NCBI GenBank assembly: GCA_022821845.1 | Contig: JAJECT010000009.1 | Span: forward strand, 10,899 to 74,898 | Length of the DNA: 64,000 bases | Source of the DNA: Rhodothermales bacterium | GTDB taxonomy: Bacteria > Bacteroidota > Rhodothermia > Rhodothermales > VXPQ01 | Direction of reading: 5' to 3' | Shown here: positions 1,079 to 56,930 of the stretch, piece after piece | Position numbering within the stretch: the stretch's first letter is position 1 | Layout of the letters: every line of letters begins with the position of its first letter | Notes under the pieces: generated by a model | Databases searched by the model: none | Seen by the model: only the letters and a program-made list of their open reading frames with translations | Told to the model about the DNA's origin: nothing | Position numbers and translations under genes: made by a program

Positions 1079-3574
1079 TTATTCTTCCTGCGGGTCCAGA
1101 ATGTTGTCGATGCGGGCCCGTACGTCTTCGAGATGCAAGGCCGTAGGCCGGTCCTGCGTCCGCCGGGCGGCTTGCTGCGCATCCCTGGTTAGCGCTTCCA
1201 GTTCGCCCCGTACGTAGGCCCGGATATCGCTTTGGCTCACGTCGATGGGGGTATAGCCAAGGTAGCGGCGGGCGGCGGCGGGCGGCGCCGTCGCCTCCTC
1301 GTTCATCAGCCGCCGAAGGTCCTCCAGGTAGGCGCGTTGCAGATTGCGCCGCCACGGATCGATGGCCTCGCCGGCGGCGAGTTCGCGCCAAAGGCCCTTG
1401 CGCAGGTCTTCCAGCATATCAAGGGGGGCGTACGCCTCGCTGCCGAGGCGCGCCTCCGCTTCGATCAGGCGGGCCAGGCGCTGCGGGTCCAGCACCAGGT
1501 CCAGCCGATTCGCCTGGATGCTGCGAATGCGCTCGAGGGCTCCCGCATGTTCGATCCGGCGAAGAACATCCTCGTCGAGGAGCCATCGGGGCGTCTCGAA
1601 TCCGAATTCGTGCAGAAAAGCCATGGCCTTCGTTTGCGCCTCCCGCGAAACCATGGTATAGACGGGTCCTTCCTGGTCGTACGTCTTCGGGGTTTCGTAC
1701 ACGCCGCCGATTTCGCGGGCTACGTGGCCGAGGTAGCGTCTCCACTGGACCACGATCTCCCCGTACAACTCCTCAAGGTGCGCGTAATCTTCGCCCTCCT
1801 CTCCGGTCCATTCGATCAGGTTCGGCACGATCCGTTGCAGGTTCGCCATGCCCAGCCGACCGGCGTCCACGGCATCGTCGCCCAGGTCTTCGCGCTGCGA
1901 CCGGGGATCGATGGGATTGCCCGTCTGCCGCCCGTAGAAATACAAGGGGTCGTCTGCGCGCTCCGCGACCCAGCTGTTCAGCACGGCCCTTATTTCCTCT
2001 TCGCTCGTTGCGTCCGGAATGGGCCGGTAGCCCCAGCGAACGCTCCATTTGTCGTATTCGCCGATCATGGGTATGAAATGCGTCACCCCGTCTTCTGGCT
2101 GCGCGATGTAATTGAAGCGGGCGTAATCCATGATGGACGGCGACGTGCCGCGCGCGCTTGTAAACGCAGGCGAACGCAGCGAATCGACGGGAAATGCGTA
2201 GCTCGAACCCCAGTTGTGCGGCAGCCCAAGCGTATGGCCCACCTCATGGGCGGAAACGAACCGGATTAATTCCCCCATCACCTCCTCGTCGAACGCTACG
2301 CTGCGCGCATGGGGGTTCGCGGCGGCGGTCTGCACGAAATACCAGTTCCGCAACAGGTTCATCACATTGTGGTACCACCCGATATCGCTTTCGAGAATCT
2401 CTCCCGTGCGCGGGTCGTGCACGTGCGGGCCGTACGCGTTTTCAATATCGGAGGGGAAATACCGGATTACGGAATAGCGCGCGTCCTCCGGGCTGAATTC
2501 CGGGTCTTCCTCTGCGGAAGGCGGGTATTTGCCGATAATGGCGTTCCGGAAACCGGCTTCCTCGAACGCCGCGTTCCAGTCGTCCACGCCCTGTTTGATG
2601 TACGGACGCCATTTCATCGGGGTGGCCGGATCGATGTAGTACACGATGGGCCGCACCGGCTCCACGAGTTCGCCGCGCGCGAAGGCTTCGGGGTCGGAGG
2701 GGTCCAGCCGCCATTTCGTAATGAAGCATTTTTCCTCCGCCCGCTGCGCGTCTGCCCCGTAATCGATGGTCTCCACGTTGAAGTACCCCACGCGGGCGTC
2801 GCAGGGGCGCGGCGTCATCCGTTGATCTGGCAAAAGCACCATGGACTGGTTCATTTCCACGGAAATGGTTCCGGTCGATGGGTTTTCGGGCGGCTCGTCC
2901 GCGGAGTACGTGAGCGTATGGCGCACCTCGATATTGCGGGGAAAGCTTTGGGCCGCATTGACATAGGAACGATCCTTGTCCAGGCTCTTGACCTTGTAGC
3001 GTTCGCGGCTCGTCGAGCCGAGGCCCAGAAAGCGAACGTCCGTCGTAAAGAGTTCCGTCACGTCCACGACGGAGCGGGTGGAATCGTCGCTGCGGGCAAG
3101 AATGTCGAAGGCGCCCACGACGGGTTCGAGGTTGGCGTTGCGGACCGCCTGGTAAATCGGCTTCTCCTCGCTCGCTACGCTTTCGTAGGAGACGATGCGA
3201 AGAAGCGTCTTGTCCCCCTGCCGCTCCCATCGCAATACCTGCGTATTGGTTTTTTGCCCGCCGTAGCCCATGCCGGCGTGCGTACGGGCCTGGCGAGTCA
3301 CGAGAATCATCTCCCGTCCAAGCAACGTATCCGGGATCTCGAACAGGAGCTGCTCCGCATCCCGATGCACCGTAAACAGGCCCGCGTCGGAGGCCATGCT
3401 TTCCTTGACGACCTCCGAATATTTCTTCATTTTGGAATCGGAATCCTCCGACTCTTTGGCGTCCGAAGCAGGGGCGTCGGCCATGCGGGCCGTTTGCAGC
3501 CCGATGCTACAGCCCCCGAATAAAACCGCAAGCGCAAGAAACGTCCACAGCGAAGAAATTCCTGAACGAGGCAT
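1079..3574 (-). CDS. Zinc-dependent metalloprotease lipoprotein (DUF5117/DUF5118/DUF4953, EcxA-like metzincin)
   Basis: Lipobox-like LFGGC after a hydrophobic signal; [12 protein letters not shown] (HExxHxxGxxH); Met-turn SIMDY; family motifs [27 protein letters not shown]. Confidence 0.88.
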
Positions 3575-3764
3575 GGTCGGTTGGGCGATTATGGAAAATG
3601 ATTCCGGCGGAGCGCGGCGCCAGGCCCGTTGCGCAAAGCATGACGCGGGCCGGGCGCGGAGGCCGCCCGTTCGAAAAGGTACGGCACAGAGACGTTAAGA
3701 GCGAAGCACGAAAGAGATTAAAGGTTGCCGGCGGCGATGCGGCAATTGCCCTTAGTACTGCTTG

Positions 3765-3777
3765 TAACTATGTGATA
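3765..3777 (-). promoter_or_regulatory. IHF-like binding site
   Basis: Minus strand TATCACATAGTTA matches WATCAANNNNTTR with one mismatch, in an AT-rich patch next to the composite repeat. Confidence 0.35.
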
Positions 3778-3797
3778 TTTAAGGATTTAACAAGAAA

Positions 3798-3843
3798 GCC
3801 TTAAAAAGTAAGGACCAAAAATGTCGCGCCTTAGAAAGTAAGG
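3798..3843. repeat. 30-bp-period AT-rich dyad (family C), site 1
   Basis: GCCTTAAAAAGTAAGG at 3798 and GCCTTAGAAAGTAAGG at 3828; linker contains AAAATGTCG, also present at site 2. Confidence 0.75.
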
Positions 3844-3855
3844 CAAGGCTTATGT

Positions 3856-3962
3856 GGGGCCTGGGGTTCGCCTTTTCACGAAACATCGGGCCCCGAATAC
3901 ACACGCAAACCCATCGTCTGTCGCGCCCTTATGTATTCGTGAAAAGGCGCGCCACAGGCCCC
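3856..3962. repeat. 107-bp long-hairpin element (family A), copy 1
   Basis: Arms GGGGCCTGGGGTTCGCCTTTTCACGAA and TTCGTGAAAAGGCGCGCCACAGGCCCC (24/27 complementary); reverse complement aligns end to end with 27519-27629. Confidence 0.85.
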
Positions 3963-3996
3963 GTTTTCATGCTGCACCCGGTTCTCCAGCAAGCCC

Positions 3997-4042
3997 GGTT
4001 AAAATAATAAGGCGCGAAAATGTCGAGGTTAAAAAAATAAAC
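3997..4042. repeat. 30-bp-period AT-rich dyad (family C), site 2
   Basis: GGTTAAAATAATAAGG at 3997 and GGTTAAAAAAATAA at 4027, linker CGCGAAAATGTCGA. Confidence 0.75.
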
Positions 4043-4054
4043 CGCCGGGAAATT

Positions 4055-5128
4055 TTACAATACCGTCCAGTCTTTCGGCGCGTCGGTAAGGTTGCGTACG
4101 CCGTCCTTGCCGAGGCACACGACGTCTTCGATGCGCACGCCAAAGCGTCCCGGCAGGTAAACGCCCGGCTCGATCGTAACGACGCACTCCTCCGGCAGCA
4201 CCTCGTCCGCGTGGCGAGACAGGCGCGGCCATTCGTGAATTTCCAGCCCGACGCCGTGCCCGAGGCTGTGCGAAAATGCTTCGCCGTACCCTCCCGCCCG
4301 AATCGCGTCGCGGGCCAGCGCGTCGACTTCCCGGCCCGTCATGCCCGCCCGCGCATGGCGCAAGGCATGGGTCTGCGCAGCAAGCACCAGGTCGTACGTC
4401 TCGGGGACGAGGGGGTCCGGCTCCCCCACCGCCACCGTGCGCGTCATGTCCGAAGCGTACCCGTCCAGAAAGCACCCGAAATCGAGCAGCAGCACATCCC
4501 CGGAGCGGACCGCCCGGTCGGACGGCTGCGCATGCGGGAGCGCGCTGCGGGGACCCGCCGCCACGACCGGGTCGAAAGCCATCCGCTCCGCGCCGCGCCG
4601 AAGGTGTTCCCCGGTGATCCGGGCGGCAATTTCTTTTTCGGTGCGTCCCGGACGGATCCATTCCGTCAGAAAATCGAACACTTCGCTTGTTAAGGCCTGG
4701 GCGGCGCGGATCCGCTCCTGTTCCGCGGGGCTTTTGCAGGCCATCAGCGGGGCGAGGAGGTTGGGTTTTCCGATCCATTCGACGTCGGGAAAATGCTTCT
4801 GGAGCGTTTCGAGGGACGAAACGACAAGGCGATCCGAGGCATAGACCGCCTTGCGCGCGCCCGCGAGGCACCCTGCCGCCGCCGCGCATTCGGCGGCAGC
4901 GCGTTGCGAAGGGCTCATGACGCAGACCGCGGCGCCCGTCACTTCTTCCGCGGCTTGCGTACGGTAGCGCCCATCCGTTACGAAATGCGCGGTCTCCTCC
5001 CGCAGGATCAGTACGCCATGCGACCCGGTGAAGCCGCATGCCCAGCGCACCTGGGCGGGATGCGTCAGGTACAGGGCGTCCGCGGACAAGGAGCGAAGCA
5101 AGGCGCGGAGAGAATCGATGCGGTCCAC
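4055..5128 (-). CDS. Xaa-Pro aminopeptidase/prolidase (M24B)
   Basis: Creatinase-N domain (GFTGS, TDGRY); metal-binding motifs DFG..GYASDMTRT, HSLGHGVGLEIHE, TIEPGVY, GVRIED. Confidence 0.92.
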   Translation of the reverse strand: MDRIDSLRALLRSLSADALYLTHPAQVRWACGFTGSHGVLILREETAHFVTDGRYRTQAAEEVTGAAVCVMSPSQRAAAECAAAAGCLAGARKAVYASDRLVVSSLETLQKHFPDVEWIGKPNLLAPLMACKSPAEQERIRAAQALTSEVFDFLTEWIRPGRTEKEIAARITGEHLRRGAERMAFDPVVAAGPRSALPHAQPSDRAVRSGDVLLLDFGCFLDGYASDMTRTVAVGEPDPLVPETYDLVLAAQTHALRHARAGMTGREVDALARDAIRAGGYGEAFSHSLGHGVGLEIHEWPRLSRHADEVLPEECVVTIEPGVYLPGRFGVRIEDVVCLGKDGVRNLTDAPKDWTVL

Positions 5129-5142
5129 AAAAAATCTCTGGA

Positions 5143-5227
5143 AAGGATACGCTGATTATGGATACGCTGATTAGGGCCGCGAAGCGCAGCGGCTTGCGAG
5201 GCGCGCGCTGGCAAGGAACGACGAAGC
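5143..5227 (+). mobile_element. Truncated left end of MITE family B with duplicated terminus
   Basis: GGATACGCTGATTA occurs twice in tandem (5145, 5160), then ...CCGCGAAGCGCAGCGGCTTGCGAGGCGCGCGCTGGCAAGGAACGACGAAGC, which aligns with 39010-39059. Confidence 0.75.
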
Positions 5228-8507: not shown

Positions 8508-8547
8508 CGGGACCCGATGTTTCGCTTAAAGGCGCGCTCCAGGCCCC
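8508..8547 (+). repeat. Partial (right arm) family A hairpin element, copy 3
   Basis: CGGGACCCGATGTTTCGCTTAAAGGCGCGCTCCAGGCCCC matches the 3' part of copies 1 and 2 (GGGGCCCGATGTTTCGTG.AAAGGCG...CAGGCCCC). Confidence 0.65.
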
Positions 8548-8558
8548 TCAAACCGCCC

Positions 8559-8606
8559 CGCCTTATTTATTTAACCTCGAAATTTTTCCGCCTTCTTATT
8601 TTAAGC
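8559..8606. repeat. 30-bp-period AT-rich dyad (family C), site 3
   Basis: CGCCTTATTTATTTAA at 8559 and CGCCTTCTTATTTTAA at 8589; resembles the reverse complement of site 2 (TTAACCTCGA.ATTTT). Confidence 0.75.
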
Positions 8607-8625
8607 ACCCTTGTTTCCGGCTCCC

Positions 8626-27518: not shown

Positions 27519-27629
27519 GGGGTCTTGCGGCCCGCCTTTGCACGAATACATAAAGGGTAGGTAGGCTCATGGGTTGGCATGCGTATTTCGGGGCCCGATG
27601 TTTCGTGCAAAGGCGGGCCCCAAGACCCC
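27519..27629. repeat. 111-bp long-hairpin element (family A), copy 2
   Basis: Arms GGGGTCTTGCGGCCCGCCTTTGCACGAA and TTCGTGCAAAGGCGGGCCCCAAGACCCC (27/28 complementary); sits between convergent genes; homologous to 3856-3962. Confidence 0.85.
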
Positions 27630-38990: not shown

Positions 38991-39248
38991 AAGGATACTC
39001 TGATTAAATCCGCGAAGCTCAGAGGCTGCGAGGGGTGCGCTGGCAAGGAATGACGAAGCGATGTGGCAGGCCCCACATAATGAGGAATGACACAGCCAGC
39101 GTGCTCCTCGCAGCCTCCCGAAGGGCGCGTCACGGACGCAACGTGCCGAATCTACTGTATTTTCTGCTGATTTCAATGGTCCGGGCATGACGGTCTTTGC
39201 GGGCAATAGTGACGCGCTGAGCGAAGCGGCTTTGATCAGAGTATCCTT
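38991..39248 (+). mobile_element. Complete 258-bp MITE-like non-autonomous element (family B)
   Basis: Terminal inverted repeats AAGGATACTCTGATTAAA and TTTGATCAGAGTATCCTT (17/18; 27/32 when extended). Internal stems GAGGCTGCGAGG/CCTCGCAGCCTC and GCGCGTCAC/GTGACGCGC. No credible ORF; three other partial copies in the window. Confidence 0.85.
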
Positions 39249-56833: not shown

Positions 56834-56872
56834 TCGTTTTTTGCGCAACGACGGGAAGGCGTTTTGGGCGGC

Positions 56873-56918
56873 GGTTAAATTATTTAGGCGGGGAAATTCG
56901 GGGGTTAAATAATTAAGG
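56873..56918. repeat. 30-bp-period AT-rich dyad (family C), site 4
   Basis: GGTTAAATTATTTAGG at 56873 and GGTTAAATAATTAAGG at 56903, linker CGGGGAAATTCGGG. Confidence 0.75.
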
Positions 56919-56930
56919 TATCCGCTTTAC

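Follow-up and report, generated by a model that had tools for sequence, protein, structure and literature searches.

The BIMEs of E. coli are mosaics of REP palindromes and linker motifs, among which BIME-1 carries an IHF site, and IS5 of E. coli generates a 4-bp YTAR duplication upon insertion. Correia/NEMIS elements of Neisseria, ERIC of enterobacteria and RUP of pneumococcus are imperfect palindromes of ~100–130 nt that give long transcript hairpins, occur in dozens of copies and are present or absent between relatives. REP palindromes have been described as 20–40 nt long with a conserved GTAG or CGTC head (PMC3733652).

Here we analyzed a window of 64,000 nt (C14:10899-74898) from the genome of an uncultured sponge-associated Rhodothermales (hereafter named G000; 2.8 Mb in 45 contigs, 61% G+C, 96% complete). 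One intergenic region of this window is a real mosaic of two small non-coding palindromic repeat families, a hairpin (A) and a dyad (C), and represents selfish 'hitch-hiker' DNA of a MITE/BIME-like kind. By architecture A/C is BIME-like, and by mechanism, where this is visible, it is an IS5-type MITE. Similar to BIMEs, A and C are palindromic modules with fixed spacings, sometimes form arrays and are extragenic near gene 3' ends. However, their units measure 107 and ~52 nt instead of 20–40 nt and have no GTAG/CGTC head, no RAYT was found in 12 genomes of the genus, and the IHF motif is not recurrent. With Correia/NEMIS, ERIC and RUP, the families share size, palindromy, copy number and presence/absence between relatives; compared by description, they differ in having no known sequence relation to these elements and no Rfam match, in the lack of a TA duplication at A and in the regular coupling of A to a second repeat family. 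As in IS5-family MITEs, A is small, non-coding, multi-copy and always intergenic, the composite is ~200 nt long, and 15 of the 26 copies in a related genome (G003) have 15-bp repeats identical to those of an IS of the genus, with AT-rich 4-bp duplications that are mostly TTAA. Unlike in such MITEs, the A copy of this region, like the copies of G000 and its closest relative (G006) in general, is devoid of these terminal repeats and of a recognizable duplication, and the conserved part of A is the internal 107-nt hairpin rather than the ends. The A and C families appear to be undescribed in the literature on Rhodothermales-type names and are not a new kind of system. The term 'Rhodotherm' is absent from the main text of a study whose supplements list MITEs per genome (PMC11602168).

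Results

Layout of the A/C mosaic

The mosaic occupies a 480-nt spacer separating two minus-strand genes, a Met-zincin (DUF4953) gene that starts at 3574 and an M24 peptidase gene that ends at 4055 (Table 1). Its two C copies lie 199 nt apart and are 72% identical. Box 1 of C1 is of the same type as the solo C found at this site in the related genomes G002 and G007. C2 looks hybrid: its left half is of the A-linked type, and orthology to the solo C of G002/G007 extends over its right half and flank. The spacer that follows A is common to the copies at C6:77372 and C19:101012. The locus occurs in sponge and marine metagenome runs from four studies. Contigs from four public runs matched the flanks within 3300–4500 at 90–99% identity, and contigs of the same runs break or multiply at A and C of this site. 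Summed contig depth at A/C was ~8–30 times that of the flanks, which fits a multi-copy repeat and gives no copy number.

Table 1 Repeat modules and related elements located in the window.
Feature	Position	Strand	Remarks
Dyad C1	3798..3844	+	Boxes GCCTTAAAAAGTAAGG and GCCTTAGAAAGTAAGG, 31 nt apart; box 2 ends 12 nt before A
Linker, C box to A 5' terminus	3845..3855	+	12 nt; length of 12–13 nt conserved across copies
Hairpin A, full-length 107-nt palindromic repeat	3856..3962	+	Stem of ~30–33 bp, variable apex of ~38 nt
Spacer 3' of A	3963..3992	+	~30–35 nt, GTTTTCA...CCAGCAAGCCC
Dyad C2	3993..4046	+	8 nt from the M24 peptidase stop codon
Truncated A (model positions 1–40)	8508..8547	-	
C linked to truncated A	8556..8607	-	Box to A terminus, 13 nt
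Full-length A between convergent genes	27521..27628	-	No C called
IS5-derived MITE 'M', 258 bp	38991..39248	+	15-bp terminal repeats are those flanking A in G003
Solo C	56871..56923	+	C14:67769-67821

Structure and copies of hairpin A

Hairpin A has 27-nt arms with 89% complementarity. Folded as RNA, it reached −58.4 kcal/mol (z = −8.4), a value matched by none of 200 shuffles, and the opposite strand folded at −62.8 kcal/mol. A profile built from the copies identified 23 non-overlapping loci on 16 contigs of G000, including 16 full-length well-scoring copies, two full-length diverged copies and five partial ones, three of which touch contig ends. According to our own rough gene calls, all 23 are intergenic and none lies inside a gene. 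The consensus hairpin, derived from 47 distinct copies in five genomes, comprises 30 pairs; 96.7% of cells are paired, and 16 of the 30 pairs show changes on both sides. None of 500 shuffles attained any of the five measures, and sliding the structure by 1–3 columns reduced pairing to 40–54%. Across the 47 copies the inner stem (GAAACATCGGGCC / CCCTTATGTATTCG) scarcely varies, and the apex is variable. On the defined A strand, we counted ~37 G:U-type against ~8 A:C-type cells, which are not independent events.

The orientation of A shows no bias to the neighboring genes, with six sense and four antisense copies in tandem-gene contexts by our own reading. Median pairwise identity of the G000 copies is 80% and that of the top pair 95%; judged from their sequences, these copies are old. 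Tandem copies with periods of 122–131 nt were observed as a pair on contig C42 of G000, as three copies in G006 where G000 has one, and as a pair in G002. Three A copies lie behind paralogous gene ends, and the flanks of the A loci are mostly unrelated. The covariance models of Rfam 15 gave no match to A or C, either over the whole window at gathering thresholds or over 3560–4080 in E-value mode; the sole match in the latter interval was nhaA-II (16.9 bits against a threshold of 70.4), outside A and C. A viral contig scan and a plasmid collection yielded no match for the repeat.

Structure and copies of dyad C

Dyad C is a ~52-nt AT-rich unit in which two TTAA-rich boxes of 14–16 nt surround a GAAAATTTCGA-like center. 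The box starts are 30 nt apart in paired pattern matches, and 31 and 30 nt apart in the two window copies. In G000, a profile search iterated over three rounds retrieved about 65 C loci at E values up to 0.05, the weakest few of which may be false; 50 of the 65 stand alone. These solo copies form imperfect palindromes of ~50 nt that fold down to −27 kcal/mol, and the A-adjoining subtype folds no better than shuffles. C is found mostly near stop codons, with flanking genes arranged as convergent (17), tandem (32) or divergent (7) pairs. We rejected C as an oriented intrinsic terminator for two reasons: it has no orientation preference, in that genes run into solo C in 28 of 48 cases on the sense side of the model and in 28 of 46 on the opposite side, and a T-run follows only 22 of the 50 solo copies.

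Some C copies adjoin start codons and have near-identical flanks (C45:127050 and 128274, C29:109347 and 110707, and C24:138 of G000). The genes concerned are apparently paralogous, suggesting that C was duplicated along with gene 5' regions. A separate observation concerns contig C27 of G000 (6976 bp), whose two ends share 137 identical nt containing a C copy. By eye, the 1059-aa protein encoded on it resembles a DNA methyltransferase, and the contig may be circular or may be a cassette between direct repeats.

Linkage between A and C

A C copy lies within 60 nt of 15 of the 23 A loci, far beyond the chance expectation (mean 0.66, maximum 4 in 2000 random intergenic placements). Eight A loci have no C, and many A copies have C on one side only. 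The arrangement follows a fixed syntax: either a box ends 12–13 nt from one terminus of A, or the first C box begins 29–35 nt from the other terminus. The flank order at A is box2–A–box1. The truncated copy at 8508–8547 obeys the same syntax. Half-sites of C next to A are uniform (Hamming distance 1.2) compared with the distal half-sites (2.8) and with those of solo copies (5.6 and 4.0), and solo Cs combine box types as mosaics. Three loci display an odd arrangement in which an A 5'-arm fragment is followed by C, 12 nt and A. The uniform A-adjacent half-sites, the 199-nt period in the window and the odd arrangement at three loci point to the copying of some A–C composites as units.

These data bear on a preliminary description of the window made from its sequence alone. 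It had delimited hairpin A and the two dyads, all of which proved to be real, and had reported recurring A-to-C linkage, which was confirmed both at the truncated copy and genome-wide. It had also noted that it did not recognize the family; Rfam has no match at A and C. Of its further elements, one proved weak and another was not confirmed. The weak A–C link proposed at 27629 concerns CCTTCAATTATTT following the A copy at 27521–27628, which the profile did not call as C; the G006 orthologue carries CCTTAATCAG in that position. The IHF-like site (3765–3777), which had been counted as a module, has one mismatch to the consensus WATCAANNNNTTR and is not recurrent: an exact IHF motif was found near none of the 23 A loci, and a motif with one mismatch near three of them, at 0.24 per kb compared with 0.74 per kb in all intergenic DNA.

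Distribution and orthologous sites in relatives

A was detected in five of the 11 other genus members searched and in none of 29 genomes outside the genus. When one genome for each of 185,579 species was screened, a strict A pattern matched only two records, which are the G006 and G003 genomes. The C-box pattern matched 54 times in G000, 62 in G006, 58 in G003, 27 in G002 and 28 in G007, compared with 0–7 times in the other 36 genomes and 0–5 in reversed-pattern controls. No A was found in G007, and the only two A copies of G002 are a tandem pair adjoining a C and an A-arm fragment. The box-pattern counts, together with the presence of C without A in G007 and the two-copy state of G002, indicate that C is the wider and probably the older family.

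Orthologous sites were then compared for filled and empty alleles, and both were found, as the preliminary description had proposed to look for. At the window site, G006 contains the entire composite with 93% identity, G002 and G007 lack A and each have one solo C downstream of the peptidase stop codon, and neither A nor C is present in G003 or in the five other genus members examined. The site orthologous to 27521–27628 is empty in G002, G003 and G007, and is occupied in G006 by three tandem A copies with a 122-nt period. Further sites revealed rearrangements. At C30:13984, a solo C stands without A in G002, and the orthologous A of G006 has its asymmetric center inverted between the same flanks. 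At C40:192-298, a clean interior deletion in G006 has reduced A to a 21-nt palindrome whose perfect stem is formed by the two stem bases. At C10:8098, G006 has 264 nt that include A with a box 12 nt beyond it, compared with 28 unrelated nt in G000. An extra inverted A, an A-arm fragment and a C are present in G006 at C5:15863.

IS5-type elements carrying A in G003

Alignment of filled G003 sites with empty G000 sites delimited insertions of ~200–230 nt. Both 15-bp terminal inverted repeats (GGATACTCTGATTAA) are present at fixed distances around 15 of the 26 A copies in G003, defining elements of 200–208 nt; one or both repeats are missing from the other 11. The 4 nt outside the repeats are equal in nine of the 15 elements (eight TTAA, one TCAA), and the orientation of A relative to the unequal arms is split 10 against 5. 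These terminal repeats are identical to the ends of a 1171–1181-bp IS in G001 and G002, genomes with 14 and 13 PF01609 matches, respectively. The terminal motif was found at both ends in 16 of the 19 loci inspected in these genomes, enclosing elements of 1171–1384 bp, and nine of the 16 copies (L100, L101 and 14 further loci) have equal 4-nt flanks. The 314-aa product scored 332 bits on NF033581 'IS5 family transposase' (cut-off 140) and contains the domains PF05598 and PF01609. The terminal repeats, the mostly TTAA duplications and the matching IS thus identify A as cargo of an IS5-derived MITE in G003.

The terminal motif, allowing up to 2 mismatches, occurs 25–547 times per genome in all 12 genus genomes and in none of the controls. 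It also bounds the MITE family M (~259 bp), which has terminal inverted repeats of 15–17 bp (AAGGATACTCTGATYAA) and 4-bp AT-rich duplications; 28 copies bounded by the motif are present in G000, one of them in the window. The intact, multi-copy 1171–1181-bp IS is likely the parent of both M and the A-bearing MITE of G003. It was not found in the fragmented assemblies of G000, G003 and G006, which gave only weak or unrelated PF01609 matches. At C44:38973-39167 of G000, one diverged A stands behind an IS5-type arm inserted at the TTAA of a C box.

No IS5-type terminal repeat was detected in the window composite at up to 3 mismatches, none of the eight G006 A copies examined has both terminal repeats, and none of the G000-type A copies yielded a definable target duplication. 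In a global alignment, the consensus arms flanking A in G000 were not significantly similar to the IS5-type arms, with 734 and 258 of the 2000 shuffles scoring as well; on this result we abandoned a diverged IS5 terminal repeat as the origin of the C box. Two other candidates were also discarded. A 660-nt terminal-repeat pair (C28:18762-19426), considered as an IS, consists of a solo motif, an ordinary small gene and a MITE, and a gene adjoining the truncated A at C19:100889, considered as a transposase, appears AAA ATPase-like from its sequence.

A second IS5-like element is present in G000 as contig-end stubs only (C2, C12, C13, C23, C24, C42 and both ends of C45). It has the terminus GGGCCTGTTAACACTA and a product beginning MELTEAQFERIAP, and is invariably preceded by TTA or CTA. 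Of its eight ends, two interrupt a called C copy and another two fall within AT-rich sequence resembling C boxes. This IS was rejected as the mobilizer of A because only its first 8 terminal nt are common to A and the A flanks lack the TTA/CTA target. The 15-nt terminal-repeat motif also occurs outside MITEs, solo or in tandem with up to six in a row (window 5145–5174, C45:18034-18080 and C40:2914-2960), and by our own reading several of the solo motifs precede start codons by a few to 30 nt. Such motifs outside MITEs may be relics, or may serve as a binding site in their own right.

Discussion

We favor, with moderate confidence, the explanation that the region is a fossil mosaic built from two families of small, non-autonomous repeats, both of them lineage-specific. 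Hairpin A would be the palindromic core of a MITE-type element, with copies that are inserted at some orthologous sites and absent from others, amplify in tandem, sometimes lose their interior and flip their asymmetric center between the arms. The IS5-type ends and the 4-bp, mostly TTAA duplications in G003 imply cut-and-paste mobilization in trans by a DDE transposase. C would be an AT-rich palindromic repeat in its own right, older and more abundant than A and residing mostly just after stop codons, and its TTAA-rich boxes may be the sites where A-bearing units land or recombine; landing or recombination at these boxes would account for the fixed 12–13-nt spacing between box and A. At 3761–4045, an A-bearing unit with C sequence would have been added, in the ancestor shared by G000 and G006, to a solo C already at the site, presumably by transposition or by C-to-C recombination, and both A and C could form 3'-end hairpins when transcribed. 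The window copy looks like an old insertion common to G006, and it is probably immobile now because no IS5-type ends are left. Candidate routes for the spread of A–C units within G000 are transposition followed by loss of the ends, C-to-C recombination, and gene conversion together with tandem growth. The box2–A–box1 order is the inverse of what insertion into C would produce, and is a better fit to tandem or recombinational spread.

The preliminary description had envisaged a non-autonomous mobile element, and this proved to be the right class, given the presence or absence of A at orthologous sites and the terminal repeats and duplications in G003 that match an IS5-family IS. Its proposal that A and C spread as one unit stands insofar as some composites were copied as units, but an obligate unit is not supported, given the 50 solo Cs, the eight of 23 A loci without C, and the occurrence of C in G007 without A and in G002 with only two A copies. 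It had further suggested REPINs, i.e., a REP/BIME system spread by a RAYT (HUH Y1) transposase. Palindromic units with conserved linkers, occasional arrays and extragenic positions near gene 3' ends do give the region a BIME-like architecture. However, PF01797 was detected in 0 of the 12 genus genomes, compared with 6 of 14 in the control, although a gene may be missed in an assembly such as G000 (96% complete, 45 contigs); A is 107 nt long and starts with GGGGCCTG (GGGG) without a GTAG or CGTC head, C is AT-rich, and the IHF motif lies outside the module. We consider spread by a RAYT very improbable. A host-selected function, as a terminator, mRNA 3'-end stabilizer, small RNA or protein-binding platform (the last corresponding to the nucleoprotein platform of the preliminary description) with mobility being secondary, would be in line with the very stable fold of A on both strands, its nearly invariant inner stem, the excess of G:U-type over A:C-type cells (again, not independent) and the location of C near stop codons. 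Against it stand the unbiased orientation of A, the flipped center between orthologues, the presence or absence of A at orthologous sites among close species, the lack of an Rfam match and the absence of IHF motif enrichment, and we consider such a function improbable as the explanation.

The remaining alternatives concern how the composites arose. Host processes only, namely slippage or unequal crossing-over, segmental duplication with neighboring genes and gene conversion between Cs, could produce the tandem A copies of G000, G006 and G002 and the three copies behind paralogous gene ends, and would leave no definable duplication or terminal repeat, as in G000. But the 23 loci are dispersed over 16 contigs with mostly unrelated flanks, G003 exhibits clean transposon hallmarks, and at C10:8098 the A and box of G006 face unrelated nucleotides in G000. 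We regard an account by these processes alone as unlikely. Site-specific integration has also to be weighed, in which a ~199-nt unit (A, spacer, C and linker) recombines its own C with a chromosomal solo C. C would then be an att-like site of ~50 nt with two boxes and a central crossover, and hybrid Cs would flank A. The mosaic in the window indeed reads C, 12 nt, A, spacer and C with a 199-nt period, the same site holds just one C in G002 and in G007, and both window copies look hybrid, C2 having a resident-type right half and an A-linked left half and C1 a resident-type box 1. The uniformity of half-sites by A, against diverse distal and solo ones, and the mosaic box types of solo copies agree with such exchange. 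On the other side, no recombinase has been linked to C or A, many A copies have a one-sided C and 8 of 23 none, the 15-nt center of C is longer than the known core spacers of tyrosine recombinases, and homologous recombination or gene conversion between dispersed Cs gives the same pattern. We regard this mode of integration as quite unlikely, and assign an equally small probability to the fuller version in which C is a ~50-nt att-like site and A the cargo of a ~200-nt protein-less mini-cassette that would enter solo C sites through C-to-C recombination by a host or mobile recombinase, the hairpin having been captured in addition by an IS5-type MITE in G003.

Three apparently undescribed repeat families in an uncultured sponge-associated Rhodothermales lineage are now named and bounded: A, the 107-nt hairpin; C, the ~52-nt dyad; and M, the ~259-bp IS5-derived MITE. 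Most noteworthy are the strong covariation of the hairpin, the regularity with which it is coupled to a second repeat, and the occurrence of this one hairpin module in two different flanking contexts. For annotation, intergenic A/C hairpins should be treated as repeats, not as regulators of the neighboring peptidase genes. The repeats break assembly, several copies being located at contig ends. If the att-like reading of C were true, one structured module would be riding two unrelated vehicles, and C-to-C integration, if true, would offer a compact model for the recombination-driven spread of non-coding cassettes. Collectively, the repeats mark recent genome dynamics between species of this lineage, comprising insertion, tandem growth, center inversion and interior deletion.
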